Part shown: positions 5,027-58,153 of the stretch, piece by piece
Layout: each line of letters starts with the position of its first letter
How positions within the stretch are numbered: the stretch's first letter is position 1
From: Candidatus Omnitrophota bacterium
GTDB taxonomy: Bacteria; Omnitrophota; Gorgyraeia; Gygaellales; Profunditerraquicolaceae
Assembly: GCA_026387435.1 (NCBI GenBank)
Contig: JAPLLS010000085.1
Location: forward strand, 1-63,569
DNA length: 63,569 nucleotides
Direction of reading: 5' to 3'
Program-made: the position numbers and the translations under genes
The notes under the pieces: generated by a model
What the model was told of the DNA's origin: nothing
Database searches by the model: none
What the model saw: the letters and a program-made list of their open reading frames with translations, nothing else

Positions 5027-5305
5027 TTATTCGGTCAGGAGGCGCCAGGACATAGCTTCGGCGTCCAGAAAAATGCGGTAATCATCGCTTTTATCGGAGA
5101 CGCTGAAATAATAAATCAATCCTCTGCCTTTTCTTGCCGTCCAGGAGTAATTGATGCGGGAGATATTACAGCGGTTTTCTTTTAGAATAAAACACAGAGG
5201 GATAATCTTGCCTTTAATGAATCGGGCGGTCACTTCCACGGCCTCGCTTTTATCGCCGGCGTCTGCGGGGAGGTTTCTGTCCCAGCGCGCCTGCGGATTA
5301 AACAT
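5027..5305 (-). CDS. Hypothetical 92-aa protein embedded in the lexA-dinB operon
   Basis: Its ATG overlaps the lexA stop (AAATATGTTTAA) and its stop lies 5 nt before the dinB ATG. I recognise no family. Confidence 0.5.
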   Translation of the reverse strand: MFNPQARWDRNLPADAGDKSEAVEVTARFIKGKIIPLCFILKENRCNISRINYSWTARKGRGLIYYFSVSDKSDDYRIFLDAEAMSWRLLTE

Positions 5306-6732: not shown

Positions 6733-7233
6733 TTAAAATCTTTCCCAGTGCAAAACCTCCTGCAAACTTCTTTTATCTGCGGCCCGGAAGACCTTATCGG
6801 TAACAGGATAGCCCAGGGCAATGATGCTGACCAACTTGTGGCTAATAGGGACACCGAACAAAAGATTTAATTCTCCGGCATAGGACTTTTTATCCCCGGC
6901 CACCCAGCATGATCCTATTCCCAGGGCCAAGGCCGCGAGCATCGCGTTCTGGGTGGCGGCAGAGCAATCCTCCAGAAAATACTTGGTGTCCTGCGAGAAG
7001 ACGAGGATCGATGCTGCGGCGCTGGAAATAAACTTTCCGTGCTCGGAAATCTCAGCAATATGCTTCAAAGCTTCTTTTTCGGTCACCACTACGAATTCCC
7101 ACGGCTGGACATTGCGGGCGGTAGGCGCGAACCGGGCCGCGTCCACGATATCCTCCAGGCAGTCCCGGGAAATCGGCTTATTCAAAAACTCTCTCACACT
7201 TCTGCGTTTCTTGATCAACTCTATTAAATCCAT
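6733..7233 (-). CDS. Nitroreductase-family oxidoreductase
   Basis: KKRRSVREF...APTARNVQPWEFVVV N-terminal signature of the FMN nitroreductase fold. Confidence 0.8.
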   Translation of the reverse strand: MDLIELIKKRRSVREFLNKPISRDCLEDIVDAARFAPTARNVQPWEFVVVTEKEALKHIAEISEHGKFISSAAASILVFSQDTKYFLEDCSAATQNAMLAALALGIGSCWVAGDKKSYAGELNLLFGVPISHKLVSIIALGYPVTDKVFRAADKRSLQEVLHWERF

Positions 7234-7246
7234 AATTTACCTTTTT

Positions 7247-9526
7247 TTAAATTGACCTTCTGTATCTTTTCATGGAAAGAGAATTGCTCACAACCGATAC
7301 CGAGCTGAAAGCCATGGCCGCTCCGGCGACCATCGGGTTTAAAAGAAATCCGGTAAGAGGATAAAGTATTCCCGCGGCGATAGGGATGCCGATCAGATTA
7401 TAGAAAAAAGCCCAGAAAAGATTCTGCCTGATCTTTTTCATGGCAAAGCGGGACAGATCCAAAGCCATGACCACATCCCTGAGATCATCCTTGATCAGGA
7501 CTATGTCGCCCGACTCAATAGCGATATCCGTTCCGCTGCCGAGGGCGATTCCGATATCCGCCTGGGCCAATGCCGGAGCGTCATTAATCCCGTCTCCGAC
7601 CATGGCCACCTTTAACCCCAGCGATTGCAATTTTTTGATCTGTTCTTCTTTATCTTGCGGCAATACCTCGGAAAAAACATCGTCCAACCCCAGATACCGG
7701 GCAATCGATTCCGCGGTCCGGTGATTGTCCCCGGTGACCATCAAAACCTGCTTCTTAAGCTTTTTAAGAGCCGCTATTGCTTCCATGGCAAAATCTTTAA
7801 GGGTATCTCCGACCGCGACAAGCCCGATGATCTTGGAGCCGGAAACCAAAAACATTACCGTCTTACCCTGGTTTTCCATGAGTTCGGAATCAGCTTTGAC
7901 TTGATCCGCGATCTCGATCTTTTTCTTCTCCATCAATTTACGGTTACCAAAAAAGATCTGCTCGTTATTGAACCTGGCCATGACCCCTTTTCCGGGAAGA
8001 GCGACAAAATCCTGAACCTCATTAAGCTGAATATTCCTTTCCCTGGCTCCGGAGACTATAGCTTCAGCGACCGGATGTTCGGATTTTCTTTCTATGGAAG
8101 CGGCGAGGGCCAAGATCTCTTCCCGGTTGCGCGAGTGATAGGAAAGATAGTCGGTAAGCACCGGTTTCCCCCGGGTGAGTGTTCCGGTTTTATCAAAAAC
8201 CACCACATCGATCTTGTAAGCGGTCTCCAGGCTCGCCGGATTGCGGATCAGGATCCCGTTCTGGGCGGCGATCCCCGTGCCGACCATAACCGCGGTCGGA
8301 GTCGCCAGCCCTAAAGCGCAGGGGCAGGCGATGATCAATACCGAGATAAAAATATTCAAAGCGAAAATAAACTCCACTCCGGCCAAAAGCCAAGCCGCAA
8401 AAACGATGATCGCGATAATGAATACCGTAGGCACGAACGCAGCGGAGATCCGGTCAGCCAGTTCCTGGACCGGAGCCTTCTTGCCCTGAGCCTCCTCAAC
8501 CAGCTTAATGATCTGAGAGAGCATCGTATCAGAGCCGACATTGATCGCCTCTAATTTAAATGCCCCGGTCTTGTTGATCGTTCCGCAAACCGCCTCTTTT
8601 CCCGGAGATTTATCGACCGGCATGGATTCTCCGGTGATCATCGACTCATCAACGCTGGAATGGCCTTCAATAACTATGCCGTCAACAGCGATCCGTTCTC
8701 CGGGCTTGACTATAACTATATCTCCGATAATGATGTCTTCGACCGGGATCTCTTTTTCTTCAAACCCGCGGACAACCAGAGCGGTTTTGGGGGCCAAAGC
8801 CAGGAGTTTCTTAATGGCCTCGGAAGTTTTCCTTTTAGCGCTGGCTTCCAGGTATTTTCCCAAAAGAATAAACGTAACCAGGATCCCCGCGGTCTCGAAA
8901 TAAACCCCGTGCACAGGTAACTTTCCGACCACTTTCCAGGAAGCTACGGTGATAAAAAGACTGTAAAGATACGCGGCGCCGACTCCCAGCGAAACCAAAG
9001 TGTTCATATTGGCTCTTTTGGTCCGGATCAAAGAAAGTATCCCTTGATTGAAGAATTCCGAGCCGCAGAAGATTATCGGCGTGGCAAGCATTAGCTGAAC
9101 CAGCCAGCTATGCTCTGCGACGAACCCGGGGAGATACAGCTCGAATCCCGGGGCCATAGAGATATAGGCAATCGGCAGGGATAGAATAAACGAGATCCAG
9201 AACCTGATCCTGAGCTCCAATATCTCGCTGGACCTGAGCCTTTTTTCCTCTTCCTGATCAGATTCCTTATGCCCTTCTAAAGTCCGGTATCCGGCTTTCT
9301 CAATGGCCTTACGGATCCGTGAAACATCGGTCTTTCCGGGATCATAGCGGACAAAAGCCTGCTCAGTCCCCAGATTCACCCGGGCTTGGTTGATCCCCTC
9401 GGTTTTTTTAAGCACCCCCTCGATGGCAACAACACAGCTCGCGCAATGCATACCCAGGACATTGACGATCACTTCTTTATCGCCTTCAATATTTCCCGAA
9501 TCATTTCCCGCCGGATTAATCGCCAT
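7247..9526 (-). CDS. copA: Copper-translocating P1B-type ATPase
   Basis: N-terminal HMA domain GMHCASCV, transmembrane CPC, DKTGT phosphorylation site, GDGINDAP hinge. Confidence 0.9.
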   Translation of the reverse strand: MAINPAGNDSGNIEGDKEVIVNVLGMHCASCVVAIEGVLKKTEGINQARVNLGTEQAFVRYDPGKTDVSRIRKAIEKAGYRTLEGHKESDQEEEKRLRSSEILELRIRFWISFILSLPIAYISMAPGFELYLPGFVAEHSWLVQLMLATPIIFCGSEFFNQGILSLIRTKRANMNTLVSLGVGAAYLYSLFITVASWKVVGKLPVHGVYFETAGILVTFILLGKYLEASAKRKTSEAIKKLLALAPKTALVVRGFEEKEIPVEDIIIGDIVIVKPGERIAVDGIVIEGHSSVDESMITGESMPVDKSPGKEAVCGTINKTGAFKLEAINVGSDTMLSQIIKLVEEAQGKKAPVQELADRISAAFVPTVFIIAIIVFAAWLLAGVEFIFALNIFISVLIIACPCALGLATPTAVMVGTGIAAQNGILIRNPASLETAYKIDVVVFDKTGTLTRGKPVLTDYLSYHSRNREEILALAASIERKSEHPVAEAIVSGARERNIQLNEVQDFVALPGKGVMARFNNEQIFFGNRKLMEKKKIEIADQVKADSELMENQGKTVMFLVSGSKIIGLVAVGDTLKDFAMEAIAALKKLKKQVLMVTGDNHRTAESIARYLGLDDVFSEVLPQDKEEQIKKLQSLGLKVAMVGDGINDAPALAQADIGIALGSGTDIAIESGDIVLIKDDLRDVVMALDLSRFAMKKIRQNLFWAFFYNLIGIPIAAGILYPLTGFLLNPMVAGAAMAFSSVSVVSNSLSMKRYRRSI

Positions 9527-12315: not shown

Positions 12316-13605
12316 TCAGGTTTTCCATAAAGCTGTTATCGCTTCGGCGTTTTTGACGGTGGCCCCCTGATTTTCCAGGATAACCTTGCGGCTGGCATTG
12401 CCCAACTCAAGAATTCTATGTTTATCTTCCAGTAACTTTTTTAATTCGATTTCCAGCTCCCCCGCGTCATTAACCATGATCCCGGCATTATTCTTGAGAA
12501 AGATCTCGGCAATATCGCGAAAATTGAACATGTATTTGCCGAACAGGATCGGTTTGCCCAAAGACGCGGGTTCCAGGATATTATGGCCGCCGCTTTTTGT
12601 CAGGCTTCCTCCCACAAAGACTATATCCGCGATGGCATAGAAATACATTAACTGGCCGATGGTGTCCAGGATAAAAACCTGTTTGCGGCCGGAAGACCCG
12701 TTCCCCCCGTTCAAGCGGGGCAGCTGGGAAATCCTGCGGGCCACAAGACGCGGATACTTATTGATAAGCTTGACCAGGGATTCGCTTCTTTCCGGATGGC
12801 GGGGCACGACCAAAAGCTTTAAATCGGGAAAGCTGCTTAGCAGATCAAGATAAACCTTCAAGATCTCTTCTTCCTCGCCCGGGTGAGTGCTGGCCGCGAC
12901 AATAAGTTTTTCCTTGATCCTCACCCCCAGCTTAACCCGGTAATCCGCGTAATCTTTTCTTAGATCCTCGTAATCCCGGATTTTGATGTCGAATTTCATA
13001 TTCCCGGTGAGTTTGATCTTTTTTGTTGCTACCCCCAGTTGTTCCAACCGCCGGGCATCAACTTGAGTTTGCACGCAGAAAACGCTGACTTTGTTCAGGA
13101 GAGGCTTGATCAAAAATCTGACCAGAAGGTATTTCTTGAAAGACCGGTCAGAAATCCGGGTATTAACTACGGCGATCGGGATATTTTTTTTATAAAGACA
13201 GCTGATGAGATTCGGCCAGATCTCGGTCTCGGCGATCACAAATAGCGTTGGGCGGATCCTATCGATGACTTTCCGCACGATCCAGCTAAAATCCAGGGGA
13301 AGATAGATCACCGCGTCGTTTTTACCGGCAATGGATCTCGCGATCTTGTTGCCGGTAGGAGTGACTGTAGAAATGATAAAATCTTTTTGGGGAAATTTTT
13401 CTTTTAAATTCTCCACCAGGTGCCTGATCGACATTGCCTCGCCCACGCTGACCGCGTGAATCCAGATGGGGCCGTCGAGCTCGGGGATCCGGAGAAACAA
13501 GCCCAGGCGCATGGCAAAACCGGCGTGAAACTTTCTTTTGAATAAAAAAACCGGCAAATAAAAAACGGCGAATATAAAAAATATCAGATCGTAAAGAAAG
13601 TTCAT
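12316..13605 (-). CDS. waaA: 3-deoxy-D-manno-octulosonic acid (Kdo) transferase
   Basis: IWIHAVSVGE motif, an N-terminal membrane anchor, and a GT30-like C-terminal half (GGSLTKSGGHNILEP). Confidence 0.85.
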   Translation of the reverse strand: MNFLYDLIFFIFAVFYLPVFLFKRKFHAGFAMRLGLFLRIPELDGPIWIHAVSVGEAMSIRHLVENLKEKFPQKDFIISTVTPTGNKIARSIAGKNDAVIYLPLDFSWIVRKVIDRIRPTLFVIAETEIWPNLISCLYKKNIPIAVVNTRISDRSFKKYLLVRFLIKPLLNKVSVFCVQTQVDARRLEQLGVATKKIKLTGNMKFDIKIRDYEDLRKDYADYRVKLGVRIKEKLIVAASTHPGEEEEILKVYLDLLSSFPDLKLLVVPRHPERSESLVKLINKYPRLVARRISQLPRLNGGNGSSGRKQVFILDTIGQLMYFYAIADIVFVGGSLTKSGGHNILEPASLGKPILFGKYMFNFRDIAEIFLKNNAGIMVNDAGELEIELKKLLEDKHRILELGNASRKVILENQGATVKNAEAITALWKT

Positions 13606-14476: not shown

Positions 14477-16444
14477 TTACTCCTGGCCTTCCTCGCTGTC
14501 CTGAGGCAGGTTCTTGGATATATAAGTGCACTTGGGATAATTCGAGCAGCCGTAGAAAAACCCGCGTTTGGAACGGCGCTGGATCAACTCTCCGCTGCAG
14601 CCGGGCTGAGGGCATTTCACCCCGGAAGTGATGGACTTGGAATTCTTGCAGGCCGGAAAATCCGAGCAGCTTAAAAACTTGCCTTTTCTTCCCCACTTGA
14701 TGATCATCGGCTTGCCGCATTTTTCGCAGATATCGTCTGTAGTGATCACTTCTTTTTTGATGTTCAAAGAAGCAAAATCAAAACTCATCTTGAACGGGCC
14801 GTAAAAATCGGTAAGCACCTTTTGGCGGCCGATTTTTCCCTCTTCCACGCCATCGAGCTCCCCCTCCATAAAAGCGGTAAATTTAACATCGATTATTTCC
14901 GGAAAATATTCAATAAGCATGTCGCAAACCTTAAAACCCAGTTCAGTAGGATTAAGATAACCTTTGATCCGGTGCACGTATCCGCGCTGGATAAGCGTGG
15001 AAATGATCGGCGCGTAAGTCGAAGGCCGGCCGATCCCCTCTTCTTCGAGGATCTTGACCAGCGAGCTGTCCGAGAATCTCGGGGGGGGCTTGGTAAAATG
15101 CTGCGAAGGTAAAAGTTTCACCAATTCCAGGATCTCGTCTTTCTCCAATACAGGGATCTCGTTTTTTTCCTTTTCCTCATCGGGCTTTTCATAGATCGCG
15201 CTGAAACCTTTAAAGATCAACTTGCTGCCGGAGGAAGAGAATATATAATCCCCGGCCTGGATACTTACCGAAGTCTGCAAGTAACGCGCAGGGGACATTT
15301 GACTGGCAATGAAACGGTTATAGATCAATTCAAATAGTTTATATTGATCATCGGTAAGGTATTTCTTAAGGCTTGCCGGAGAATGAGAGATTAAAGTAGG
15401 ACGGATAGCCTCATGGGCCTGCTGGGCGAATTTTTTAGTTTTGTAGACCGGAGGCTTCTCAGGAAGATATTCCTTGCCGAAATTTTTCAGGATCAGCTCC
15501 CTGGCCTGGCTGACCGCTTCCACGGCGATATTGGTGGAATCGGTACGCATGTAGGTAATAAGGCCCACCGGGGTTTCTTCGCCGATATCAATGCCTTCGT
15601 AAAGTTGCTGAGCCAAGATCATGGTTTTGGCGGCGTTAAACCTTAATTTATTAAACGATTCCTGCTGCAGGCTGCTGGTGATAAACGGCGGGTCGGAAGA
15701 ACGTTTTTTTTCGGTTTTCTTGACTTCTAACACCTTGAATTCCCGGCCGGCAAGTTCATTGACGATTTGATCGGCTTCCTGCTGATTTTTTATTTCTATT
15801 TTCCGGGAATCTTTTTTGTCGAGTTTAGCGGTAAATATCGAGTTTTCTTTACGCAGCTGGGCCTCGATCTCCCAGTATTCGTGGGGTTTAAAATCCAGGA
15901 TCTGCCTTTCCCGTTCAATGATCAGCCGCAAAGCCACAGACTGGACCCTGCCTGCGCTTAAACCCCGGGCGATCTTCTTCCAGAGTAAAGGGCTGAGCAA
16001 ATATCCGACTATCCGGTCCAGGATCCGGCGGGCAATCTGAGCTTCGACCATGTTCTGGTCGAATTCCCGCGGAGACTCAAAAGCATGGCGTATGGCCTCG
16101 GCGGTGATCTCATGGAAATTGACCCGCTTTACCGCTTTATCCTTAAAGATCGCTTCCTTGATATGCCAGCCGATAGCTTCGCCTTCCCGGTCAGGGTCGG
16201 TTGCCATATAGATATTAGACACGCCTTTAGCGTCTTTTTTCAGTTGAGCCAGAAGCTTCTTGCGCCCGGCAAGGATCTTATAAGTCGGGACAAACCCCGC
16301 CTCAATATCGACTCCCATTTTCTTCTCGGGCAGATCGATCACATGGCCCATGGAAGGCACAACCGTAAAATTGCTGCCCAGTATCTTGCTAATTGTCCTG
16401 GCCTTGGTCGGAGACTCGACGATAACCAGATTTTTATCTGCCAT
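14477..16444 (-). CDS. topA: DNA topoisomerase I (type IA) with two C-terminal zinc ribbons
   Basis: Toprim LVIVESPTKA, ATDPDREGEAI, active-site region GLITYMRTDS. CEKCGKPM...CSDFPAC and CPQPGCSGEL...CSNYPKC zinc ribbons. Start moved to ATG 16444 (MADKNLVIVESP). Confidence 0.9.
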   Translation of the reverse strand: MADKNLVIVESPTKARTISKILGSNFTVVPSMGHVIDLPEKKMGVDIEAGFVPTYKILAGRKKLLAQLKKDAKGVSNIYMATDPDREGEAIGWHIKEAIFKDKAVKRVNFHEITAEAIRHAFESPREFDQNMVEAQIARRILDRIVGYLLSPLLWKKIARGLSAGRVQSVALRLIIERERQILDFKPHEYWEIEAQLRKENSIFTAKLDKKDSRKIEIKNQQEADQIVNELAGREFKVLEVKKTEKKRSSDPPFITSSLQQESFNKLRFNAAKTMILAQQLYEGIDIGEETPVGLITYMRTDSTNIAVEAVSQARELILKNFGKEYLPEKPPVYKTKKFAQQAHEAIRPTLISHSPASLKKYLTDDQYKLFELIYNRFIASQMSPARYLQTSVSIQAGDYIFSSSGSKLIFKGFSAIYEKPDEEKEKNEIPVLEKDEILELVKLLPSQHFTKPPPRFSDSSLVKILEEEGIGRPSTYAPIISTLIQRGYVHRIKGYLNPTELGFKVCDMLIEYFPEIIDVKFTAFMEGELDGVEEGKIGRQKVLTDFYGPFKMSFDFASLNIKKEVITTDDICEKCGKPMIIKWGRKGKFLSCSDFPACKNSKSITSGVKCPQPGCSGELIQRRSKRGFFYGCSNYPKCTYISKNLPQDSEEGQE

Positions 16445-37721: not shown

Positions 37722-38228
37722 CTAAATTTTTCTCAATTCCAATTTTCTGACTTTTATTTTTGCTTCCTTGAGCATTTTCCCGGACATTTCATCCGGATAT
37801 CCTTCGGCGATTACGATCTCGGTAACTCCGGCATTGATCAGCATTTTTGCGCAGATAATACAGGGCTGATTAGTAATATAGATAGTACTGTCCTTAACGC
37901 TTATCCCGTAGAGCGATGCCTGGATGATCGCATTCTGCTCCCCATGCAGGCCGCGGCATAATTCATGGCGCTGGCCGGAAGGAATCTTGAGCTTGTCGCG
38001 CACGCAGCCGGTTTCCAGACAATGTTTAAGCCCCCGGGGCGCGCCGTTATAGCCGGTAGCGAGCATGCGTTTATCTTTAACGATCACCGCGCCCACGTTG
38101 CGGCGGATGCAAGTCGAGCGCTGGGAAACCAAATGCGCGATCTGCATGAAATATTCGTCCCAGCTTATTCTCTTATGTTTTTTATTTTTTTCAACCTGTG
38201 ACTTTGTGACCCTGTGACCTTGTGACAT
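37722..38228 (-). CDS. dCMP deaminase (ComEB/CDA family)
   Basis: Zinc motifs HGEQNAI and [14 protein letters not shown]-terminal extension [20 protein letters not shown] is encoded by the octamer-repeat element. Confidence 0.85.
38195..38226 (-). repeat. Octamer-periodic element, copy a (4 x GTCACARR) forming the first codons of the dCMP deaminase gene
   Basis: Minus strand: AT-GTCACAAG-GTCACAGG-GTCACAAA-GTCACAGG-TT. Confidence 0.85.
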
Positions 38229-38239
38229 GTATGACCTTT

Positions 38240-43570: not shown

Positions 43571-44587
43571 TTAAACTATTTGAACCTGCTTCTTGCCTTT
43601 GCAGCAGGCTCCGATGATCCAGGATTTCAGTTTCATCTTCGCCAGTTCATTCTGGATCTCTACGGCGTCCGAAACCTCGACGATCAAAACCATACCTATG
43701 CCCATATTCAAGGTATGGTAAATTTCTTTATCCGGGATGTTGCCCTTGTTCTGGATCAATTTAAAGATCGTCTGGAACGGCCAGGAACCTTTATTAATCC
43801 TGGCATCCACATTCTTGGGAAGAATACGGACGATCTTATCGTAAAACGCACCGCCGGTAATATGCGAGATCCCCCGGATCGGCTGTTTTCCTGCGCGATT
43901 GAATTTTTCCAAAAGAGCCATAACCGGCTTAACATAGATCCGGGTCGGCCGAAGAAGTTCCTTGCTCATCCTCTTCTGCTCGGACTCGGAGAAAACTTTT
44001 CGCACCAGCGAATACCCGTTGGAATGGATGCCATTCGACTCTATCCCAATGACCAAATTCCCTGATTCGATCTTTGAACCATCCAGGATTTGTTTCTTCT
44101 CTACGATCCCTACGCAAAATCCGGCCAAATCATATTCCCCGGGTTTATACATATCCGGCATCTGGGCGGTCTCGCCTCCGATCAAGGCACATCCGGCTTG
44201 CAGGCAGCCGTCATTCAAACCTTTGACGATATCCAGCAAAGTTGCTTCCGGCAATTTACTGTAAGCGATATAATCCAGAAAAAATAGAGTTCTCGCTCCC
44301 ACGCAGAGGATATCATTGACATTCATAGCCACCGCGTCAATACCCACGGTATCATGCTTGCCGGCCAGGGCCGCGATCTTAAGCTTGGTCCCTACCCCGT
44401 CCGAAGAAGCGACCAGTACCGGATCCCGGAACTTTTCCTTGGCCAGGCTGAAAAAACTTCCGAATCCGCCGATCCCTTTAAGGACTTGAGGGCCCTGCGA
44501 CTTTTTGACCAGCCCCTGGAGTTTGGCCTTGAATAAATTGGCGCTCTGAATATCCACGCCGGATCTTTTGTAAGTAATATTCTTCAT
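43571..44587 (-). CDS. purM: Phosphoribosylformylglycinamidine cyclo-ligase (AIR synthetase)
   Basis: YKRSGVDI...IGGFGSFF...SSDGVGTKLKIA...GGETAQMP. Confidence 0.95.
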   Translation of the reverse strand: MKNITYKRSGVDIQSANLFKAKLQGLVKKSQGPQVLKGIGGFGSFFSLAKEKFRDPVLVASSDGVGTKLKIAALAGKHDTVGIDAVAMNVNDILCVGARTLFFLDYIAYSKLPEATLLDIVKGLNDGCLQAGCALIGGETAQMPDMYKPGEYDLAGFCVGIVEKKQILDGSKIESGNLVIGIESNGIHSNGYSLVRKVFSESEQKRMSKELLRPTRIYVKPVMALLEKFNRAGKQPIRGISHITGGAFYDKIVRILPKNVDARINKGSWPFQTIFKLIQNKGNIPDKEIYHTLNMGIGMVLIVEVSDAVEIQNELAKMKLKSWIIGACCKGKKQVQIV

Positions 44588-44596
44588 CCCATTATC

Positions 44597-45902
44597 CTAT
44601 GGTTGTTTTCCTGTCCAGCAATACTGGCAAAGTTTTTCTTTTTGCAATCCTATGGCCTCGATCATATCGTCGAGCTTCTGATACTGCAGAGAATCCACGT
44701 CCAGGTCTTTTCTGATCCATTCTACCATTTTCTTGTGCTTGGAGGAATTTTCGTCGATATACTCACTGACGTCTTTGATGTCTTTACCTTCCAGGGCCTT
44801 GATCGCCTTGCGGGCTGCCAGCTCATGGATGCTCCGGGTAGAAAAATTGAATTTGCAAGGGAACATCAGCGGCGGGCAAGCGATACGCAGATGAATCCCC
44901 TTGACCCCGCATTCCTTGAGTTTCTTGATGGTGTAATTCTTGAATTGTGTTCCCCGGACAATGGAGTCATCGCAAATGACCACCCGCTTGCCTTTAATAA
45001 TTTCTTGAATGGGAATAAGTTTCATTTTCGCCACCAGGTCGCGGGTCTCCTGCGACGGAGGAGTATAGCTGCGGCCGTAGCCGGGAGTATATTTTACCAA
45101 AGCCCGGCGGTAAGGCAGGCCGGATTCCATGGCGTAACCGATGGCGTGGGCGATACCGGAATCGGGAATACCGCAGACCAAATCCGCGTTGACCTTGTCC
45201 CTTTTAGCTAAAGCCCGGCCGGAATTTTCCCGGACCACTTCAGTATTGACCCCTTCATAGGAAGACGCCGGAAAACCGGTGTAGATCCACAAGAAGCTAC
45301 AGGTCTGATTAATCCCGGAGCCTTTTTCCTTGATTGTAACCCCGGATTTATCGATAAAAATTTTCTCCCAGCACCAATGGGTAATAGCCGTAGCGGTCCG
45401 GAGCGGCATAGATCCCTTTTTCAGTAAGGATCAATAACGAACATGACCCCTGGATCTTCTCAAACATCTTCTTGATCCCGTCGGGAATATCTTTGCCCCG
45501 GATGATCAATTTTGCCGCCAGCTCGCTCATGTTTACGCTGCCGTCGGCTACTTCGCTGAAAGACTGTCCTTCCTTATACAGAAAATCCACCAGCTCATCG
45601 GTGTTCTCGATAAAACCGTTGGTAGCTATAGCGAACGGGCCAAAGCGGGATTTGATGTAAACCGGCTGTTCATCCTTGGCGCTGATGACCCCGATACCTT
45701 TATCCCCGGGCATATTTTTGTACTCGGCGAAAAACTTAGCCTTGAACTGGGTGCCGCTGATGTCGTGGATCTTCCGGATTAATTCCTTCCCCCAGACTGC
45801 CAGGCCGGCAAACTGGGTGCCCAGATGAGAATGATAATCCGTCCCGTAAAACAAATCCTGCATGCAGCTTTCTTTTGATACTACCCCGAAAATCCCGCTC
45901 AT
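44597..45902 (-). pseudogene. Amidophosphoribosyltransferase paralogue: nucleophile Cys replaced by Ser, split by a frameshift with apparent loss of ~28 codons
   Basis: N-terminal ORF 45348-45902 starts MSGIFGV (canonical MCGIFG) and ends ...YPLVLGENFYR*. The +1 frame continues EKIFIDKSGVTIKEK... into a PRTase domain (VVICDDSIVRGTQ). The junction lies in GAGAAAATTTTTATC. Compared with the adjacent purF, the ...GGAFCLASETCAFDLVGAKYIREIEPGE block is missing. Confidence 0.6.
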
Positions 45903-45922: not shown

Positions 45923-47401
45923 TTATTTTTTAAGTTCACACTTTGGTTTTCCCGACTGTCCGCAGCAGCCCAGTTCTAAAGCGAATTTATCCACATCCTT
46001 GGCGTGCAGCGGGTATTTTCCGGTCCAGCAGGCCGCGCAGTAATTCTCATTCTCGTATTTCAGGCAGCCAAGCATCCCTTCCAGAGTTAAATACCCCAGA
46101 CTGTCCACTTCAAGGTACTGCTGAATTTTAACCAGCGATTCATATTTATTGGCGATGAGTTCCGTCGGTTTGTGAAAATCTATTCCGTAAAAACAGGGAA
46201 AACGGTGGGCCGGGCAGGAGATCCGCAAATGCACTTCTTTACACCCTGCTCTGCGCAGGTTGCGCACGCGGATCTTGGAAGTCGTGCCCCGGACAATGGA
46301 ATCGTCGACCACGATTATCCGTTTTCCTTTGATCACGTCTTTAAGCAAATTGAATTTAATCCGCACTCCCAGGTCGCGGGCATCCTGTGCCGGCTGGATA
46401 AATGTCCTGCCCACGTAATGGTTGCGGATGATCCCTAACTCCAACGGTATTCCCGACTCGTGGGAATAACCCATAGCTGCCGAAAATCCCGAATCCGGGA
46501 CCGGGATGACATAATCAGCTTTAACCGGGTGTTCTCTGGCTAATTGCGCGCCCAACTTGCGCCTGACCGTATGCACCGTCTCGCCGAATACCACTGAATC
46601 CGGGCGGGAAAAATAAACGTGTTCGAAGGTGCAGAAGGAATGCTTGCCCTTTAATTGCAGCGATTCCGGTTTAATGGATTTAATCCCGTTAACATCGATA
46701 AAAACTATTTCTCCCGGCTCGATCTCCCGGATGTATTTAGCGCCGACGAGATCAAAAGCGCAGGTCTCCGAGGCCAGGCAAAAAGCGCCGCCCAGTTTTC
46801 CCAGGACCAGCGGCCTGAACCCAAGGGGGTCGCGTACTCCGATCAAGTGTTTATTATCCATCATCACCAGCGAATAAGCACCCTTGACCCTTTCCAAGGC
46901 AAAAACCAGGCTCTCCAGAAGATCGCGGGATTTGGCCCGGGCCATCAAATGGATGATTATTTCCGAATCCGTGGTAGTCTGAAAGATCGAACCTCTTTCT
47001 TCAAGTTCCTGGCTGAGTTCCAGGGAATTGACCAGGTTGCCGTTATGAGCGATACAGATCGACCCCTTGGCGTAATCGATCAATAACGGCTGGGCGTTCT
47101 TTAAAACGCTCGAGCCGGTAGTAGAATAGCGCACGTGGCCCACCGCGGCCGTGCCTTTTAGCTTGTCTAAAACTTCCGGGGTAAAAACATCGCTGACCAG
47201 CCCCATGTGCTTATAGACCGAAAGATTCTCTTTTTTGTTAACCACGATCCCGCAGGCTTCCTGGCCGCGGTGCTGCTGGGCGAACAATCCCAGATAAGTC
47301 AGCCAGCTGGCCTGCTTATGGCCGAATATCCCGAAAAGGCCGCAGAATTCTTTTGGGGTATCGTTATCCTCGTAAATTATTTTTTGCATATTCCACACCA
47401 T
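45923..47401 (-). CDS. purF: Amidophosphoribosyltransferase (with propeptide and [4Fe-4S] ligands)
   Basis: Propeptide then CGLFGIFG. SETCAF, FCTFEHVYFSRPDS, VVDDSIVRGTT, and C-terminal NYCAACWTGKYP cluster cysteines. Confidence 0.9.
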   Translation of the reverse strand: MVWNMQKIIYEDNDTPKEFCGLFGIFGHKQASWLTYLGLFAQQHRGQEACGIVVNKKENLSVYKHMGLVSDVFTPEVLDKLKGTAAVGHVRYSTTGSSVLKNAQPLLIDYAKGSICIAHNGNLVNSLELSQELEERGSIFQTTTDSEIIIHLMARAKSRDLLESLVFALERVKGAYSLVMMDNKHLIGVRDPLGFRPLVLGKLGGAFCLASETCAFDLVGAKYIREIEPGEIVFIDVNGIKSIKPESLQLKGKHSFCTFEHVYFSRPDSVVFGETVHTVRRKLGAQLAREHPVKADYVIPVPDSGFSAAMGYSHESGIPLELGIIRNHYVGRTFIQPAQDARDLGVRIKFNLLKDVIKGKRIIVVDDSIVRGTTSKIRVRNLRRAGCKEVHLRISCPAHRFPCFYGIDFHKPTELIANKYESLVKIQQYLEVDSLGYLTLEGMLGCLKYENENYCAACWTGKYPLHAKDVDKFALELGCCGQSGKPKCELKK

Positions 47402-48140
47402 TCTTTATGATTAAAAACCCGTGCCCCAGGCTGGCGCCGCTGGTTTTCTCCCAGCGCGGGTGCTGTCGGATATCGATATGCCTTTCCGGATGAGGCATTA
47501 AACCCAGGATCCTTCCCGTATCGTCACAGATCCCGGCGATGTCTTCCAGCGAACCGTTAGGATTATCGCTGTATTTAAAAACTATCTGGTTATTCTTTTT
47601 CAAACGCGCCAGAACTTGCTTATCCCGGACCACGAATTTACCTTCGCCGTGGGCGATCGGCAAATAGATCTCTTCGGGCAGATCTTTTGCCCACACGCAT
47701 TTCACCTGCGACTTGTGACTTTGCGACCTTGTGACTTTAAGATAAACCCATTCATCGAGAAAAGATCCGCAGTCGTTAATGATCAGGCTGGTTTCCTGCT
47801 CCAAGGTATCATTGCCGGGCAGAAGCCCGCTTTTAACCAGGATCTGAAAACCGTTGCAGATGCCGATAATCAGTTTTCCCGCGGCGATAAATCTCTTGAG
47901 CCCCTGGTTTAATTTACAGCGCAGCTCGTTAGCCAGGATCTTGCCGGCGGCAATATCATCACCGTAAGAAAATCCTCCGGGCAATACCAGTATATGGTAA
48001 TTATCCAAAGATTTCTCTGAGGAAATAAGCCTGTTCACGTGCACCAATTCCGGATCGCCTCCGGCAGCCTCGAATGCAAAAGCAGTTTCCTTGTCGCAAT
48101 TAGTGCCTGCCGTCCTTAATATACAAACTCTGGGTTTCAT
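47364..48140 (-). CDS. purQ: Phosphoribosylformylglycinamidine synthase, glutaminase subunit
   Basis: LVLPGGFSYGDD, nucleophile GICNGFQIL, IAHGEGKF, MPHPER. Confidence 0.9.
   Translation of the reverse strand: MKPRVCILRTAGTNCDKETAFAFEAAGGDPELVHVNRLISSEKSLDNYHILVLPGGFSYGDDIAAGKILANELRCKLNQGLKRFIAAGKLIIGICNGFQILVKSGLLPGNDTLEQETSLIINDCGSFLDEWVYLKVTRSQSHKSQVKCVWAKDLPEEIYLPIAHGEGKFVVRDKQVLARLKKNNQIVFKYSDNPNGSLEDIAGICDDTGRILGLMPHPERHIDIRQHPRWEKTSGASLGHGFLIIKNGVEYAKNNLRG
47705..47735 (-). repeat. Octamer-periodic element, copy b, inside purQ
   Basis: Minus strand: AAA-GTCACAAG-GTCGCAAA-GTCACAA-GTCGCAGG-TG, encoding VTRSQSHKSQV in the variable loop before the conserved IAHGEG. Confidence 0.85.
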
Positions 48141-48838: not shown

Positions 48839-51780
48839 TTACCAGCGCAAAGGCTTTTGCCATGATTCTTTCAGATCGTTGATGTTGGAGTCCACGCAAA
48901 TTTCCCCATCCAAGCCAAAAACCTTGAAATCTTTGCCCTGGGAAACGCAGCCGATCAATCCAAAAACTGTCCCTTTAAGCAATTTTTCGAACTTTTTCTG
49001 ATCTTTCTTTTCGATCTCGACTATAAAACGGGAATTAGATTCGGAGAACAAAACAAAATCATTTCGATCAATTTTCTTTTTTCCGCCGCAGCTCATCCCG
49101 GAATAAGGAACTTCCGCCAGAAACAGCTCCATTCCCAAGCCTCCGGCAAAAGCCATTTCGCTGGCAGCAACTCCCAGCCCGCCCTCGGAACAATCATGCA
49201 TCGCAGAGATCAATCCCTTCGACGATGCCCGGCTTAAGGCCTGGAAAGTTTTGTTGGCCTGAACCGGATATACCCGGGGAACGTTATTTCCCATCGCCTT
49301 GAACAAACCGTAATAATGCGAGCCGCCCAGCTCTTCCCGGGTGAGGCCTACGATATAGATCAAATTCCCAGGCTTTTTGGCATACATGGAAATCGCTTTA
49401 CCCGCGTCCTTCATCACCGCGATCGCCGAGATCAGGATCGTCCCGGGAATAGCCTGGGATTTACCGTGGACCGCATACTCGTTATACAAACTGTCTTTCC
49501 CGGAAATAAAAGGCACCCCAAAAGCTTTGGCAATATCATAGCATCCGTAGGACGTGCGCACTAAAGACCCCAGCCTGTCCGGTTTATCGGGATTTCCCCA
49601 GCAGAAATTATCCAGCAGCGCCACTTCTTCCAGCGAGCCGCCTACGGAAATGATCTGACGCAGGGCCTCGTCAATACAGGAAGCAGCCATCCAGTAAGGA
49701 TCGATAAAACCGTAGCGAAAATTGATGCCGTTAGAAACTATCACTGCCCGCTGGGAATCCAGCACAGGCTTGACGATCGCGGCGTCCGAAGGTCCGTCAT
49801 TGACGATCCCCACCAGCGGCTTAAGCACAGTTCCGCCCTGAACCTCATGGTCGTATTGCCTGACCACCCATTCCTTGGAACAAATATCGTAATCGCCCAG
49901 CAACCTGGACAGATACAAAGTAAGGTCTTTTTTAACAGCGATAGCCGGCTCTTTATGTTTGGGGCTTACGTAGCAGGCTTTCTTCTCGGTCCTGGGCAGC
50001 CCCTCGTGAAGAAATTGCATATCTAAGTCGCAGACCAGATGGTTATGATAAAAAAGCTGCAATCTTTTGGTATCAGTGAACTCTCCGATCACCGTGGCCT
50101 CGACGTTCTCCCCGGAAAATACTTCAAGAGCTGTTCTAACTTCTCTTTTTTCACCGAGATGGTCATCCTCTCCTGGGATTCGGAAATCCAAATCTCGGTG
50201 TAAGACAGCCCCCTGTATTTTAAAGGCACTTTTTCCAGATCGACCCGGCAGCCCAATTCCTGAGCCATCTCTCCTACGGCCGAAGACAAACCGCCGGCGC
50301 CGCAGTCGGTGATCGCGGTATAAAGGCCTCGGTCGCGGGCCACAAGCAAAGTATCGAGCATTTTCTTTTCCTGAATAGGATTACCAATCTGCACCGCGCC
50401 GCTGGAGATGGTTTCGGATTCGTGGGTCAATTCTCCGGAAGAAAAAGTCGCGCCGTGGATACCGTCCCTGCCGGTCCGGCCGCCAACCACTACCACCAAC
50501 TCGCCGGTTGAAGTCTTTTTAGAAGATTTGTCTTTAGGCATTATCCCGGCGGTTCCGCAGTAAACCAGGGGGTTGCCCACAAAGCCTTCGTGAAACAATA
50601 CCGAGCCGTTGACCGTGGGAATACCCATTTTGTTGCCGTAATCGCGCACTCCGGAAACTACGCCTTTGGCGATCCGTTTAGGGTGCAGTGTTCCCTTGGG
50701 AAGTTTGCTGAAAGGATAATCTGGAGGAGCAAAACAAAAGACGTCGGTATTTAAAAACGGTTTGGCTCCCAGTCCCGTGCCCATGGGGTCGCGGATAACT
50801 CCACCGATACCGGTATTAGCCCCGCCGAAAGGCTCTAAGGCCGAGGGATGATTGTGAGTTTCCACCTTAAAACAAACATTGTATTTATCGTCAAACTCGA
50901 TCACCCCGGAATTATCCTTGAATACCGAAACACACCAGGGCTTATTCAATTCCCTGGTGACCTTCATGATCGTCGACTTCAAAAGATTATTTATCTTTAA
51001 GGTTTTTCCCTGTGACTTTGCGACCTTGTGAACTTGTTGCCCTATAATTTCTTTATACTCGATCTTGCCGCGGAAAGTCTTGTGGCCGCAGTGCTCGGAC
51101 CAGGTCTGGGCAATAGTCTCCAGCTCGCAGTCAGTGGGATTGCGCCCCAATTTCTTGAAATAATCCCGGATCAGGCGCATCTCAATAAGATTAAGAAAAA
51201 GCTGGCCCTGGGAACTGATCTCCTGGAGCCTCTTATCCGTTGCTTGCAAAAGATCCACGATAACCAGGCCAAACTTGTACCCGGTTTCCCCGGCAACTAG
51301 TGGTTTATACCCGCAGGATTGATCCTTAACGACATGTTGAATCAGTTTATTGTAAAGAAGTTTTTCGGAAATAGTCTTTAATTGCGGCTCGGTAAGCTTG
51401 CCTGTAAGGAGGTATTTTCTGGCGGTCTTGATCGAAGTCACTCCTCCAATACCTAAGTCCCGGATACCTTTGAGAGTGGAATCCTCAACCGGATCCATAA
51501 CCCCCGGGTTATGAGCGACCTCGACGATATGAACATTCCCGCGGACAGATCGTTTTTGTCCTGCTACGATCCGGTAATCCTGAGAAACTTTATCCGCAAG
51601 TAACTCCGCGCAGATCCTCTCTAGCTCTTGACGGGAAATTAAGCCTTCAATGTTATAAACCTGGACGAACCTGACGTCTTTGACCGAATCGATCCCCAGG
51701 TCCAAAACATCTTTTTTGACGCCGACACCCACAGCGTCAAAAATTCCGGGTTTGTCAATTACTTCTATTTTCCAAAACAT
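48839..51780 (-). CDS. purL: Phosphoribosylformylglycinamidine synthase, PurS-PurL fusion, interrupted by an apparent single-base (-1) frameshift near 50120-50151
   Basis: N-terminal PurS-like ~80 aa, then PurL motifs ([43 protein letters not shown]). ORF 50089-51780 ends ...[23 protein letters not shown] 48839-50191 carries the continuation ...[18 protein letters not shown] in the -1 frame. Confidence 0.85.
51009..51039 (-). repeat. Octamer-periodic element, copy c, inside purL
   Basis: Minus strand: CAACAAGT-TCACAAGG-TCGCAAAG-TCACAGGG, encoding [11 protein letters not shown]. It shares a 21-nt identical core TCACAAGGTCGCAAAGTCACA with copy b. Confidence 0.85.
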
Positions 51781-54591: not shown

Positions 54592-56603
54592 TATTCCTCG
54601 ATAAGTTTTTTGATCTTATCCAGATTCTTCCTGGCTTCTTCCTCGCCTCTCTTGGCGAATTCTTCCGCCTTATAAAACTCCATCCAGTGCAGCCCCGAGG
54701 TGTCCGGGTGCAAAACTACGTCCGCCAGCTGCGCTTCCTTAAGCGCCACTTCCGACTGCATGATCTCGAAACTGCTGAAAATAAAATCCAGGATATTGAC
54801 TTTTAATTTTTTGCGCAGGTACTCCCTGAGATTGAACCAATCGTTTGTTTTTATCTGTTTTACCTCAACGGAAAGATCCTGTTTGATCCGGTCGTACTGC
54901 CTGATCAGGTCTTCGCGCGAAGGGGTAAGGTTGACGGCAATGATCTTTTTGGCGCCCATCTCCAACAACGGTTCGGTAGGCAAAGGATTGATCACCCCGC
55001 CGTCAAAAAACATCTGGCCTTTTTGGGTAAAAGGAGCGAATACCCCGGGCATGGCGCAGCTGGCCATAAGCGCGTCGATGATCAGCCCTTTTTCGAAAAC
55101 GATCGACTTCTTTCCCTTCAAATCGCTGGCAATGATCTTTAAAGGGACTTTTACGTCGTAGAAAGTCTTATCTCCCAGGTAAAGTTTAAACATATTGTAA
55201 AGTTTATTGCCCTTGATAAAACCCAGCAACGGGAAGGTAAAATCCAGGAGGTTCCAGATATGCTTTGGCTCTTTAAATTCCTTGGCTATGGACAGGATTT
55301 CCGAACTCGATTTTCCGATCGCCCAGAGGCTGGCGATAAACGCCCCCATGCTGGATCCGGAGATGACATCGATAGGGATTTTTTCTTCTTCAATCACTTT
55401 TAGGATCCCGATATGGCAAAAGCCGTAAGCCACCCCCACCCCCAGAGCCAGCCCCACCAAACAATTACCTTCATGGCGGGAAATTCTCCGGATTACCAGG
55501 GAATAATCCGCATCGGGTTTTTCGATCACCAGTCTTCCGGAAACCCTGGTGTCTATTTTAGGCAGACTCGCGAAAATCTCGCCTCCCAACAACTGCTGTT
55601 TTTCTTCAAAGCTCAGTTTGGAAGGTTTGCTTTCGTTGACGATCACTTTTACCTTGGATTCGGAAAAACCAAAATCCTTTTCCAGCTTTTTGATCAATCT
55701 CAGGGTACTTTTTAAATCCGAAGCCTTGGGGCTGGTCAGGATATGAATAAGATCCGACTGGTTTAGAATAGTCAGGATCGTCTTTTCCCGGCGACAGGGC
55801 AGATCCAGGACCACGAAATGATAATCATTGACGAGATTGCTCAATAATTCGGTGACTTTCTTCGGCCACAGCTCGTCTTGATTGGAATAACTCAAGTATA
55901 TGACATCTATGCCGTATCTGTCCTTTAAGATCTGAGATTTCAGCGAATCGATGCGAAAAGAACGGGAAGAAATATTAGTTACCCGGTAGTCTTTTCCGGT
56001 TTTCAACAACCTGGGCATGCGGTGGCATTTATCATGGCGGCAAATATCCACGATGATCGATTTTTTCCGCGCTTCTTTACTCAAGCTGAAAGCCAGGTTA
56101 GAGGCATAAACGGTTTTTCCGGCCTGGGGGTATGAACTTAAAACCGCGATGATCGTGCTTTCGAAGATAGTCTTAGGATGGATGTCTTTACGTTTAAGCC
56201 TGCGGGAAAGAGTTTTGCTCAGGTCGATAGCCAGCTGCGGGATCTTCTTTAAAAGCCCGTCGAAAGCGGGCTTGGGGATAACCAGAAGCAAGCAATCATT
56301 CAAAGCCTTGGCGGTCACCGAATGCGGCTCTCCGGTCAAGGCCGAGATTATCCCGAAGTACTGGCCGCGGTGCATGTATTCCAGGACCTGCTGCTTGCCG
56401 GCATGGTCCAACACGGAAAGCACCGCCCTGCCCCGGATTATGCAATAAAAGAAAGACGGCGCCGAACCTTCCTTGTAAATTACCTGGCCTTTTTTGAATT
56501 CAGTGAAGCTGGATTTCTTTTTGATATAATTCAATTCATCGGACGATAAGCCGGAAAAAAGAGGAATTTCTCTGAGAATGTAACTGTTATTATTGATTTT
56601 CAT
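54591..56603 (-). CDS. Three-domain protein: cyclic-nucleotide-binding domain, ParA/MinD-like domain with a degenerate Walker A, and a patatin-like phospholipase
   Basis: cNMP-binding: FKKGQVIYKEGSAPSFFYCIIRGRA. Middle: IIAVLSSYPQAGKTVYASNLAFSL...FVVLDLP. Patatin: GLALGVGVAYGFCHIG, GSSMGA (GxSxG), DGGVINPLP (DGG). Confidence 0.8.
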   Translation of the reverse strand: MKINNNSYILREIPLFSGLSSDELNYIKKKSSFTEFKKGQVIYKEGSAPSFFYCIIRGRAVLSVLDHAGKQQVLEYMHRGQYFGIISALTGEPHSVTAKALNDCLLLVIPKPAFDGLLKKIPQLAIDLSKTLSRRLKRKDIHPKTIFESTIIAVLSSYPQAGKTVYASNLAFSLSKEARKKSIIVDICRHDKCHRMPRLLKTGKDYRVTNISSRSFRIDSLKSQILKDRYGIDVIYLSYSNQDELWPKKVTELLSNLVNDYHFVVLDLPCRREKTILTILNQSDLIHILTSPKASDLKSTLRLIKKLEKDFGFSESKVKVIVNESKPSKLSFEEKQQLLGGEIFASLPKIDTRVSGRLVIEKPDADYSLVIRRISRHEGNCLVGLALGVGVAYGFCHIGILKVIEEEKIPIDVISGSSMGAFIASLWAIGKSSSEILSIAKEFKEPKHIWNLLDFTFPLLGFIKGNKLYNMFKLYLGDKTFYDVKVPLKIIASDLKGKKSIVFEKGLIIDALMASCAMPGVFAPFTQKGQMFFDGGVINPLPTEPLLEMGAKKIIAVNLTPSREDLIRQYDRIKQDLSVEVKQIKTNDWFNLREYLRKKLKVNILDFIFSSFEIMQSEVALKEAQLADVVLHPDTSGLHWMEFYKAEEFAKRGEEEARKNLDKIKKLIEE

Positions 56604-57823
56604 TCTTCCAGTAAACCGGTTGATGCGACTTGCGCCAGCTTCCTGGCGCTATCCCTGGGCGTTCTTTTATAATCCGAGTAATCGATTGCGCAGAGCCCGA
56701 AACGCGGGGCAAAACCCTTGTCCCATTCAAAATTATCCAGTAACGACCAGTATAAGTAGCCGATCACATTAACCCCGTTAGCCATGGCCGCATGGACCTT
56801 CTTAAGGTGCTCCCGGATATAATCCCATCTCTGATTGTCATCCTGGCAACAAATACCGTTTTCTAATATAAAAACCGGGAGACGATATTTCTTTAAACCC
56901 ATCAACAGGTAATAGAGCCCCTGGGGATAAATTTCCCAACCCAGCGAATTCTTAGGGAGCGTATCATGCTTTTTAGCGCAGGTGTTACCGAGCAATTCCC
57001 ATAAAGACCATCTCCGGGTATCAACCAAATGACGGGTATAATAGTTCATCCCGATGAAATCCAGGCATCTTTTCCTATATAATAGATTGATCAGCCTAAA
57101 ATTGAACAGCCTGTTCCTTAAATATACCGCGAGATTATTACGCAAGCTTTTCTGGCAAGCTATGAAAGCGATCATATTTTGGGCAATACTAACCATTGGC
57201 GGAGAAAGTTTATTCTCTTTATAAAATGAGTGGATCAGGCGGTAAGAGCGAATGTGCGCATCAACGAGGTTATTGGCCACTTTATTAGCCGTTACCGGGG
57301 ATTTTTTCTGGGGAGGCCACTCTCCAACCAGATAAGAATAATAGGTATAAACCATGGGCTCGTTGACAGTCACCCAGTATTTCACCCTGCCCGAAAATGA
57401 TTTGACAATTTTCCCGGCGTACTCCAAGAAATACTGTATCGCCTGGGGGTTCTCCCATCCGCCGATCTTGGATAACCAAAGCGGATTGGTAAAATGGTGC
57501 AAAGTCACTATCGGTTCGATCCCCAGGCTGCGCAGATGATCGATGACCTGGATATAATGGTCTATCTCTGACTGGGAAAACTTATCGGGTTCGGGCTGGA
57601 TACGGGCCCATTCCAAAGAAAGGCGATGAGAGTTATGGCCCAAACTCTTGGCCAGGTTAAAATCCTCCCGGAAAAGCTGATAATGACGGCAAGCCGCTCC
57701 CGAAGAGGCGATCCCTGGTTTTGTCTTTTCCCACTCCCACCAGTCGGAATTAGAATTATCCCCTTCCACCTGATAAGCGGCAGTGGTTGAGCCCCATAAG
57801 AAATCTTTAGGAAATTCGATCAT
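56600..57823 (-). CDS. GH1-family beta-glucosidase
   Basis: FPKDFLWGSTTAAYQVEG, TLHHFTNP, VNEP (acid/base Glu), ILENG (nucleophile Glu). Start set at the internal ATG 57823 (MIEFPKDFLWG); the ORF-track start at 57874 adds 17 non-homologous residues. Confidence 0.9.
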   Translation of the reverse strand: MIEFPKDFLWGSTTAAYQVEGDNSNSDWWEWEKTKPGIASSGAACRHYQLFREDFNLAKSLGHNSHRLSLEWARIQPEPDKFSQSEIDHYIQVIDHLRSLGIEPIVTLHHFTNPLWLSKIGGWENPQAIQYFLEYAGKIVKSFSGRVKYWVTVNEPMVYTYYSYLVGEWPPQKKSPVTANKVANNLVDAHIRSYRLIHSFYKENKLSPPMVSIAQNMIAFIACQKSLRNNLAVYLRNRLFNFRLINLLYRKRCLDFIGMNYYTRHLVDTRRWSLWELLGNTCAKKHDTLPKNSLGWEIYPQGLYYLLMGLKKYRLPVFILENGICCQDDNQRWDYIREHLKKVHAAMANGVNVIGYLYWSLLDNFEWDKGFAPRFGLCAIDYSDYKRTPRDSARKLAQVASTGLLEE

Positions 57824-57872
57824 GGGCTTTATTATAACACGTGACGCATTAATGGGCAAGGCTGCGGTAAAC

Positions 57873-57899
57873 AAAAAATCCCAACATTTCTGTTGGGAT
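57873..57899 (-). terminator. Rho-independent terminator (second terminator after the ncRNA candidate)
   Basis: Minus strand: ATCCCAACA-gaaa-TGTTGGGAT followed by TTTTTT. Confidence 0.65.
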
Positions 57900-57907
57900 T
57901 ATTGTGC

Positions 57908-58153
57908 AAAAAAAAGCCGATAAAGGCAAGTACTGCCTTTACTTTCGGTAACCCAGCCACCATATTAACCCGCTCTAAGACTATTCCGCACTCACTGGTA
58001 CGGAACTTTCGCTTCAGCGGATAACTTAGGTCTGTGGCTTTGCCCCGCGCGCAACATCCGCACCCGAACGCCGCGACGGGGTCCCGACAAAAAACTCACA
58101 GGAGTAGATCGCCGGAACGCCCCCCGATTTCTCGAGGTTTGCCTTTATCGGCC
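57908..58153 (-). ncRNA. Candidate ~246-nt structured RNA of unknown class
   Basis: Own promoter (58160-58187). The 5' GCCGATAAAGGCA (58152-58140) pairs perfectly with the 3' TGCCTTTATCGGC (57928-57916), followed by T8. Internal hairpins: CCUCGA-GAAA-UCGGGG, UUCCGUA-n8-UGCGGAA, and CCCCG-u-CGCG...CGCGCGGGG. No ORF. Confidence 0.55.

Follow-up and report, generated by a model that had tools for sequence, protein, structure and literature searches.

Octamer arrays translated inside the dCMP deaminase, PurQ and PurL genes of an Omnitrophota bacterium are probable members of a dispersed, fast-evolving tandem-repeat family

The contig JAPLLS010000085.1 of a Candidatus Omnitrophota bacterium (assembly GCA_026387435.1), analysed over its 63,569 nucleotides and hereafter referred to as the window, carries three near-identical short arrays of an octamer unit, GTCRCARR, each of them located inside the gene of a nucleotide-metabolism enzyme. 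These arrays are probably dispersed, fast-evolving short-tandem-repeat modules of this Omnitrophota lineage, each consisting of about four GTCRCARR octamers (~32 nt). The arrays and the genes that host them are as follows:

38195-38235, minus strand: copy a, translated as an N-terminal extension of dCMP deaminase
47705-47735, minus strand: copy b, encoding VTRSQSHKSQ, about residues 136-146 of PurQ
51009-51040, minus strand: copy c, in a variable loop of PurL, with a 21-mer in common with copy b
37722-38228, minus strand: dCMP deaminase gene (dcd), host of copy a (homologue names, Pfam)
47364-48140, minus strand: purQ, coding for the glutaminase subunit of phosphoribosylformylglycinamidine (FGAM) synthase, host of copy b (homologue names, Pfam)
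48839-51780, minus strand: PurS-PurL fusion gene, host of copy c (homologue names, Pfam)

Copy a consists of four perfect GTCACARR units, GTCACAAG GTCACAGG GTCACAAA GTCACAGG, at 38195-38226; with Tandem Repeats Finder the array continues to 38235 through a fifth, degenerate unit, GTCATACAT, which holds the ATG of the dCMP deaminase gene. Copy b is 31 nt long and has four units, GTCACAAG GTCGCAAA GTCACAA GTCGCAGG, and copy c also has four, GCAACAAG TTCACAAG GTCGCAAA GTCACAGG, two of them degenerate. The initial annotation, made from the sequence alone, had reported three such arrays on one strand, and they are indeed present on the coding (minus) strand, the strings given there being the reverse complement of the plus strand; the extents of copies a and b stand, whereas copy c, which had been ended at 51039, is better read as 51009-51040. 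The three hosts had been named as dCMP deaminase, PurQ and PurL, with which both the homologue names and the Pfam annotation of syntenic relatives agree.

What is conserved between the three sites is DNA and not protein, as had been proposed. The 21-mer TCACAAGGTCGCAAAGTCACA is identical in copies b and c, where it was located at 47714-47734 and 51011-51031, and the common string TCACAAGGTC starts at codon phase 1 in dcd, phase 2 in purQ and phase 3 in purL, which confirms that it is decoded in all three reading frames. An excess over a composition-matched expectation had been named as a test of the arrays: with at most one mismatch allowed, GTCRCARRGTCRCA has 8 matches in the window, every one of them on the minus strand, compared to a mean of 0.07 in dinucleotide-preserving shuffles, none of which (0/100) reached 8. 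A match at 44496-44509 (GTCAAAAAGTCGCA, 1 mismatch) has two units only and was not taken as a copy, and there are no further clusters of the GTCRCARR type within the 63.5-kb window. A chance convergence of Lys, Ser, Gln and His codons, or an assembly artefact, would call for nothing beyond the A/C-rich composition of such loops, but the shuffling result, the decoding of one string in three phases and the recurrence of the arrays in independent JGI, ENA, NCBI and Logan assemblies leave this explanation a practically negligible probability. The three arrays are real and non-random.

In PurQ, the array lies in the loop that comes after RWVYLK, which has about 5 residues in outgroups and solved structures and 12 in the PurQ of the window. 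The residues encoded by copy b correspond to a gap in PurQ of T. maritima (3D54), and the alignment with orthologues and solved PurQ proteins, which had been suggested as a check, identifies them as extra residues. The motif after the loop is conserved as described in the initial annotation but reads LPIAHGEG and not IPIAHGEG. Across 119 PurQ homologues the loop is bimodal in length, with 4-6 aa in 15 of them, which hold a single unit, and 11-13 aa in 81, which are longer by 7-8 residues (three units), intermediates being few. Periodicity at lag 7 or 8 was found in 52 of the 87 PurQ loops with a length of 10-14 aa, compared to 7.8 expected from shuffling. The DNA coding for the loop in the homologues contains perfect or near-perfect arrays of ~4.4 units at the same spot, with units that vary by genome (AGTCGTC, AAAAATC, CGCACAA, AGAGAAC, ACGTCCC, GAACTCAC, AAAATCC and others). 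In locus L458 (3632-3789) the purQ loop is made up of 22.6 heptamers (158 nt, ~50 aa) with a 42-nt higher-order period, still in frame, and the unit of L003 and that of L208 include the flanking Lys codons.

The near relatives of the window were obtained by protein search and exact-protein look-ups, and a scan of metagenome contigs for further ones gave none above 69% identity. The relatives represented by L283 and L201, with 84-89% PurQ identity, have a single unit in the purQ loop, which is 24 nt shorter than that of the window, and purQ of L285 (93% PurQ identity) is shorter by 15 nt. In L202 (92% identity) the loop is encoded by a heptamer version of the array, GTCACGC GTCGCAA GTCACAC GTCACAG.

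The position of the PurQ array, conserved clade-wide, and the retention of the 11-13 aa class in most homologues are what one would expect if the clade needed a longer flexible loop, rich in Lys, Ser and Gln, that is tolerated in PurL and dCMP deaminase as well, with the periodicity being a mere trace of how the loop was made. Near-perfect arrays of unrelated units across lineages demand continual regeneration and not conservation, however, and the relatives with 84-89% identity and ~13% of the homologues do without the extension. Such a protein-level function, which also has to contend with the GTCRCARR unit being found in non-coding spacers and in three frames, is considered unlikely. In the AlphaFold model of PurQ (mean predicted local distance difference test score, pLDDT, 84.9) the array appears as a coil after the strand 127-136, and the pLDDT is lowest, below 50, at residues 142-144; a loop modelled as a low-confidence coil likewise speaks against this explanation.

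The other two sites are occupied more variably. Among the homologues listed, an N-terminal extension of the array type was found only in the closest dCMP deaminases, and in L286 there are remnant degenerate units upstream of the ATG of dcd. The PurL loop hosting copy c is variable everywhere it was compared: the window and L283 have GTCACA-type units at this site, those of L283 carrying a nested 46-nt element described below, L201 and L286 have an array of the heptamer CAAATCC, and L009 has GCAGATG x3.9. Four different heptamer arrays, GCAGATG, GCCATAA, GTCGCTG and CGCACAA, are present in purL and purQ of L009 (1-6117), in contrast to the window, where the three sites share one unit. One of the L009 arrays takes the place of the L-A-E-V-P-Y motif that PurL normally conserves, and at purL site 1 the unit GCCATAA begins in the conserved P-A-I codons (GCCATA); the L009 contig also contains masked bases and frame breaks.

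Compared with L201, L283 and L286, the purL fusion gene of the window lacks 1 nt, and this deletion breaks it into two overlapping open reading frames (ORFs), 50089-51780 and 48839-50191. The deletion is located near 50110-50130, ~900 nt away from the array, and the intact PurS-PurL of relatives has 979-995 aa. The split reflects an assembly error or else a pseudogene of recent origin. A frameshifted purL, a unit length that is not a multiple of three and a copy number that evolves fast might be taken as signs of a contingency locus, in which the gain or loss of a single unit would frameshift purQ, purL or dcd and thereby switch it on or off. The initial annotation had listed a slippage-prone contingency repeat among its possibilities, and as far as the fast change of length and unit is concerned it was right. 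The on/off switch finds no support: in all the homologues compared the frame is kept through the array, the length classes being 7-8 aa apart (21 or 24 nt) or related by a compensated step of 15 nt, the purL deletion is far from the array, and the hosts are core biosynthetic, housekeeping enzymes. We regard a contingency function as highly improbable.

How the arrays are tolerated inside ORFs can be seen from their frames. In the sense orientation all three arrays are open in all three frames, whereas the antisense strand contains stops in 3/3 frames for copy a and in 2/3 for each of copies b and c. The complementary array has a TGA every 8 nt, so that every frame is met within three units, and therefore only the sense orientation and the one-armed form survive inside ORFs. 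Since the addition of three units of any length keeps the frame, the bimodal PurQ loop lengths fit the same filter: the majority of the length states that survive are three units (21 or 24 nt) apart, and the 15 nt by which L285 differs are made up of 7+8. The array codes for a hydrophilic peptide (V/T/R/K/S/Q/G/H) and is translated, to judge from the structural model, as a disordered, hydrophilic stretch. The window module, 31-32 nt in length, has no self-complementarity, and no RNA structure was detected in the one-armed window copies (fold z = +0.67, -0.15 and -0.16). The arrays match no Rfam family; the one Rfam match that the window gives, a c-di-GMP-I riboswitch (57944-58153, minus strand), scores 35.9 bits against a gathering score of 35 and lies upstream of 56600-57874, a gene of glycosyl hydrolase family 1.

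The arrays of the window probably belong to a family with members at other places. The search of relatives for GTCRCARR arrays, recommended in the initial annotation, found them at unrelated sites, namely the N-terminus of a lipoprotein and the purD-purE spacer, so that besides the three copies in 63.5 kb there are more in L201, L283, L286 and 12 other Omnitrophota loci. In L201, a lipoprotein signal peptide has (AAAGTCAC) x4.2 in its n-region, a site that is empty in the window. The purD-purE spacer of L283 contains an insertion of ~80 nt with an array-loop-inverted-array structure, absent in the window and in L286, which folds into a hairpin (16226-16301) with -38.8 kcal/mol and z = -6.4. 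No local precursor of the unit was found at either of these two sites, and the junctions of the filled and empty sites possess neither terminal inverted repeats nor a target-site duplication, the features of a MITE (miniature inverted-repeat transposable element). In the 12 other Omnitrophota loci most of the arrays lie in short spacers between genes, in many cases as inverted pairs, and the adjoining genes are unrelated: def, dtd/tatD, Memo/AMMECR1, DJ-1, M20 peptidase and AAA_14 ATPases. The intergenic forms in L283, L089 and L094 are imperfect hairpins of 60-80 nt between genes. As a separate observation, 35 arrays were found in viral contigs.

Two smaller elements are nested in the arrays of relatives. 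In L283 and L286, arrays of the GTCACA type in the PurS-PurL linker and the C-terminal PurL loop flank a GC palindrome, CTGCCTG(T)CGGCCGGCAGGCAG, which is found in L286 at ~5240-5300 and 7470-7545 with GTCAC units on either side, in frame; its peptide, CLPAGRQA-like, is seen again in several genomes in loops of PurL and PurQ, including those of PurQ P0007, P0014, P0026, P0082 and P0101. The other is a 46-nt double-hairpin element, ATTACGCACAAGCGTATACCGRCGC..GCGYCGGGTGCA, translated as ITHKRIPTHPIASGA and nested in GTCACA-type arrays at 7090-7135 and 19634-19680 of L283, 2455-2500 of L284 and ~5600-5648 (minus strand) of L298; its host sites in the relatives are the loops of PurL and PurQ and the N-terminus encoded by dcd. 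It was not found in the window, and a genome-wide 17-mer scan located it at four Omnitrophota loci, the remaining matches being at chance level.

Such a distribution bears on the suggestion that the repeats are a periodic binding array which co-ordinates purine and pyrimidine genes; the GUCACAAG repeats would then be read by an antisense RNA or by an oligomeric protein that binds RNA or DNA. That three CA-rich, unstructured copies of one unit lie in sense orientation in genes of nucleotide metabolism within a single window does speak for a cis-regulatory array of this kind. Nevertheless, the same family is present at the lipoprotein gene, in the purD-purE spacer and beside def, dtd/tatD, Memo/AMMECR1, DJ-1 and M20 peptidase genes; purQ lacks it in close relatives (84-89% PurQ identity), the purL site of L201 and L286 holds a different heptamer, and quite different units occupy the purQ and purL sites of other species, four of them on one 6-kb contig (L009). 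Neither between genomes nor within L009 is the unit sequence conserved at a given site, and the targets are unrelated, as opposed to sites of the TRAP, CsrA or PUF-like type. Almost all genes of the window sit on the minus strand, so that the common strand and the placement of the hosts in one operon carry no weight, and the nucleotide-metabolism supra-operon described in the initial annotation is not established. A regulatory array is thus judged very unlikely, and the proposal of a binding array did not hold up.

With regard to the abundance of the repeats, a scan of 596 Gb of reference sequence gave at least 120 matches each for GTCRCARR and for the reversed control octamer, so the raw counts say nothing about absolute enrichment. 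The two differ in their Omnitrophota share, with 13 of 80 among the GTCRCARR matches listed and 0 of 80 among those listed for the control. Arrays with 3, 4 and 5 units numbered 42, 56 and 6 for GTCRCARR among the matches listed (L081-L200) and 35, 34 and 16 for the control octamer, likewise among the matches listed (L303-L422); over 133 GTCRCARR arrays among the matches listed the modal count is four units. In ~430-480 kb of Omnitrophota-like DNA, 18 of 28 tandem arrays have a period of 7, while the other phyla in the sample are flat over 6-9. Of the period-7/8 arrays in the Omnitrophota-like loci, 21/27 are located inside long ORFs and 17/27 have 4.x copies.

Among the explanations offered in the initial annotation, a tolerated in-frame mini-insertion, similar in principle to the Rickettsia palindromic elements (RPEs), fits best, given that the residues are extra, present in some close relatives and absent in others, and modelled as a low-confidence coil. 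On this reading, that of dispersed repeat modules, the module would act at the DNA level, arising or landing at permissive places such as gene boundaries, N-termini and surface loops, after which its unit sequence and copy number would change quickly. Inside ORFs the arrays would be filtered by frame and stop codons, and the survivors would be translated as a disordered loop; they would have no regulatory role and may be neutral or selfish. Arrays may be renewed by slipped-strand or reiterative replication, collapsing to a single unit and expanding to four again in cycles, and GTCRCARR modules may additionally be copied between sites by gene conversion or by some trans-acting activity. There might, then, be two layers, a general tendency towards arrays of about four units and the copying of a preferred unit between sites. 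In-situ amplification of the flanking codons is, to judge by the sequence, a plausible origin for the arrays of L003, L208 and L009 purL site 1. Taken as the sole origin, in-situ amplification and insertion were both rejected, since neither alone accounts for all the sites.

Several observations weigh against the dispersed-module reading. No enzyme that could generate or mobilise the arrays was found in the window or beside arrays at other loci. Plain slippage explains neither the jump from one to four units nor the presence of one unit at sites with no local precursor. The four-unit mode amounts to a length "ruler" of ~32 nt, a sharp preference for which this reading does not account, and ~70-85% of the PurQ loops of the clade are filled, which might just as well reflect selection in favour of greater loop length. 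The 21-mer common to copies b and c is modest evidence for copying (~1 in 10-20 by our estimate), and since the loci were gathered around purQ or by the GTCRCARR pattern, the rates given above are not genome-wide ones.

Dispersed families of heptamers and octamers have been noted in bacteria since 1990 as over-represented sequences of unknown origin and function (PMC4692102, PMC4679880). The heptamers GGGAATC of Xanthomonas and GGGGAYT of Nostoc are over-represented, occur as four-unit arrays and inverted pairs and keep their position while varying in sequence, polymerase slippage having been offered as a hypothesis (PMC4692102). The TAACTGA repeats of Beggiatoaceae, Cyanobacteria and Bacteroidetes are spread patchily across phyla, with "no mechanism evident" (PMC4679880). 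The arrays described here have much in common with the heptamer families, including the cyanobacterial STRR family: units of 7-8 nt in short arrays, four units being commonest, copies with a lineage-typical unit at several dispersed sites, inverted pairs able to form hairpins, a location in spacers near start and stop codons, sites kept among relatives while length and sequence vary, and a patchy cross-phylum distribution with no known mechanism. They differ from them in the octamer unit GTCRCARR, in the location of all the window copies inside ORFs, where they are translated (the heptamer families are described as essentially intergenic), and in the clade-wide occupation of one protein loop by lineage-specific units with a length quantum of three units. 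Relative to the known kinds of repeat, what is new is the octamer unit, the intragenic location and the one loop occupied clade-wide.

In-frame repeat insertions are known from Rickettsia (PMC10969869), and both the RPEs and the present arrays place an in-frame repeat in unrelated housekeeping genes, adding a peptide compatible with the fold. The RPEs are, however, ~100-150 bp long, palindromic and MITE-like and encode a conserved peptide in one frame, whereas the arrays are ~32 nt long, one-armed and read in three frames. With REP/REPIN elements (PMC3116915) the intergenic forms of L283, L089 and L094 share the imperfect hairpin between genes. Unlike in the REP/REPIN-RAYT system, the arms consist of tandem octamers and the coding copies are one-armed; no GTAG-type motif was seen, and there is no RAYT gene in the window or beside the arrays. 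More generally, no transposase, HUH or reverse transcriptase (RT) protein is encoded in the window, and no such gene adjoins the arrays at the loci elsewhere.

The small dispersed repeats (SDR) of Nostoc, which Elhai et al. are said to have described in 2008, are reportedly very small elements (tens of nucleotides) inside tandem short repeats. The 46-nt element and the GC palindrome nested inside GTCACA arrays of the relatives resemble them in this respect, but differ in phylum and sequence, and the nested elements are absent from the window. In Borgs, the unit lengths of repeats inside ORFs are reportedly divisible by three, as opposed to the 7-8-nt units found here, which stay in frame via three-unit or mixed 7+8 steps. 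The Borg tandem-repeat study describes repeats that evolve fast, arise independently, occur in ORFs and create disordered protein regions (PMC9879509), and to that extent they resemble the present arrays as nucleotide repeats inside ORFs which add disordered segments. No bacterial paper on these particular repeat strings was found in the literature.

A more far-reaching and tentative idea, which we hold to be somewhat unlikely, is that an active repeat-"writing" process operates in Omnitrophota, and probably also in Bacteroidota/Acidobacteriota, by which a segment of 7-8 nt would become about four tandem copies in a single step (a ~30-nt ruler, plus three units) and GTCRCARR would be spread to new sites. 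If this were true, the surface loops of essential enzymes would be continually remodelled and would provide landing pads for the smaller nested hairpin elements, and the excess of heptamer repeats in the genomes of bacteria, so far unexplained, would become approachable in mechanistic terms.

Repeats located inside essential genes have the advantage that the reading frame serves as a built-in recorder of array change. More than 100 genomes have a purQ loop that is "empty", with one unit, or "filled", with four, the units turning over at a fixed position, and they form a natural series in which close relatives display clean gains, losses, replacements and nested mini-elements. This series allows stepwise slippage, one-step amplification and inter-site copying to be tested against each other with existing metagenomic reads. 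It also points to a route from non-coding repeat dynamics to disordered loops in bacterial proteins, and for annotators it means that array inserts are real and not frameshift artefacts.

The nearest homologues of the host proteins come from uncultivated Omnitrophota, and the remaining part of the window is ordinary chromosome with dinB, lexA, topA, dprA, a xerC-like gene, aro genes and others. A second purF-like gene (GATase_7) at 44597-45902 on the minus strand is split into ORFs of 270 aa and 184 aa, ~78 nt being missing between GGGAGAAA(A/T) direct repeats as compared with L202 and L283. An A-rich tandem repeat with a 14-15 nt unit (AATAAAAAACGGC, x2.8) is found at 13540-13581, at the junction of a kdtA-like gene and the xerC-like integrase gene.

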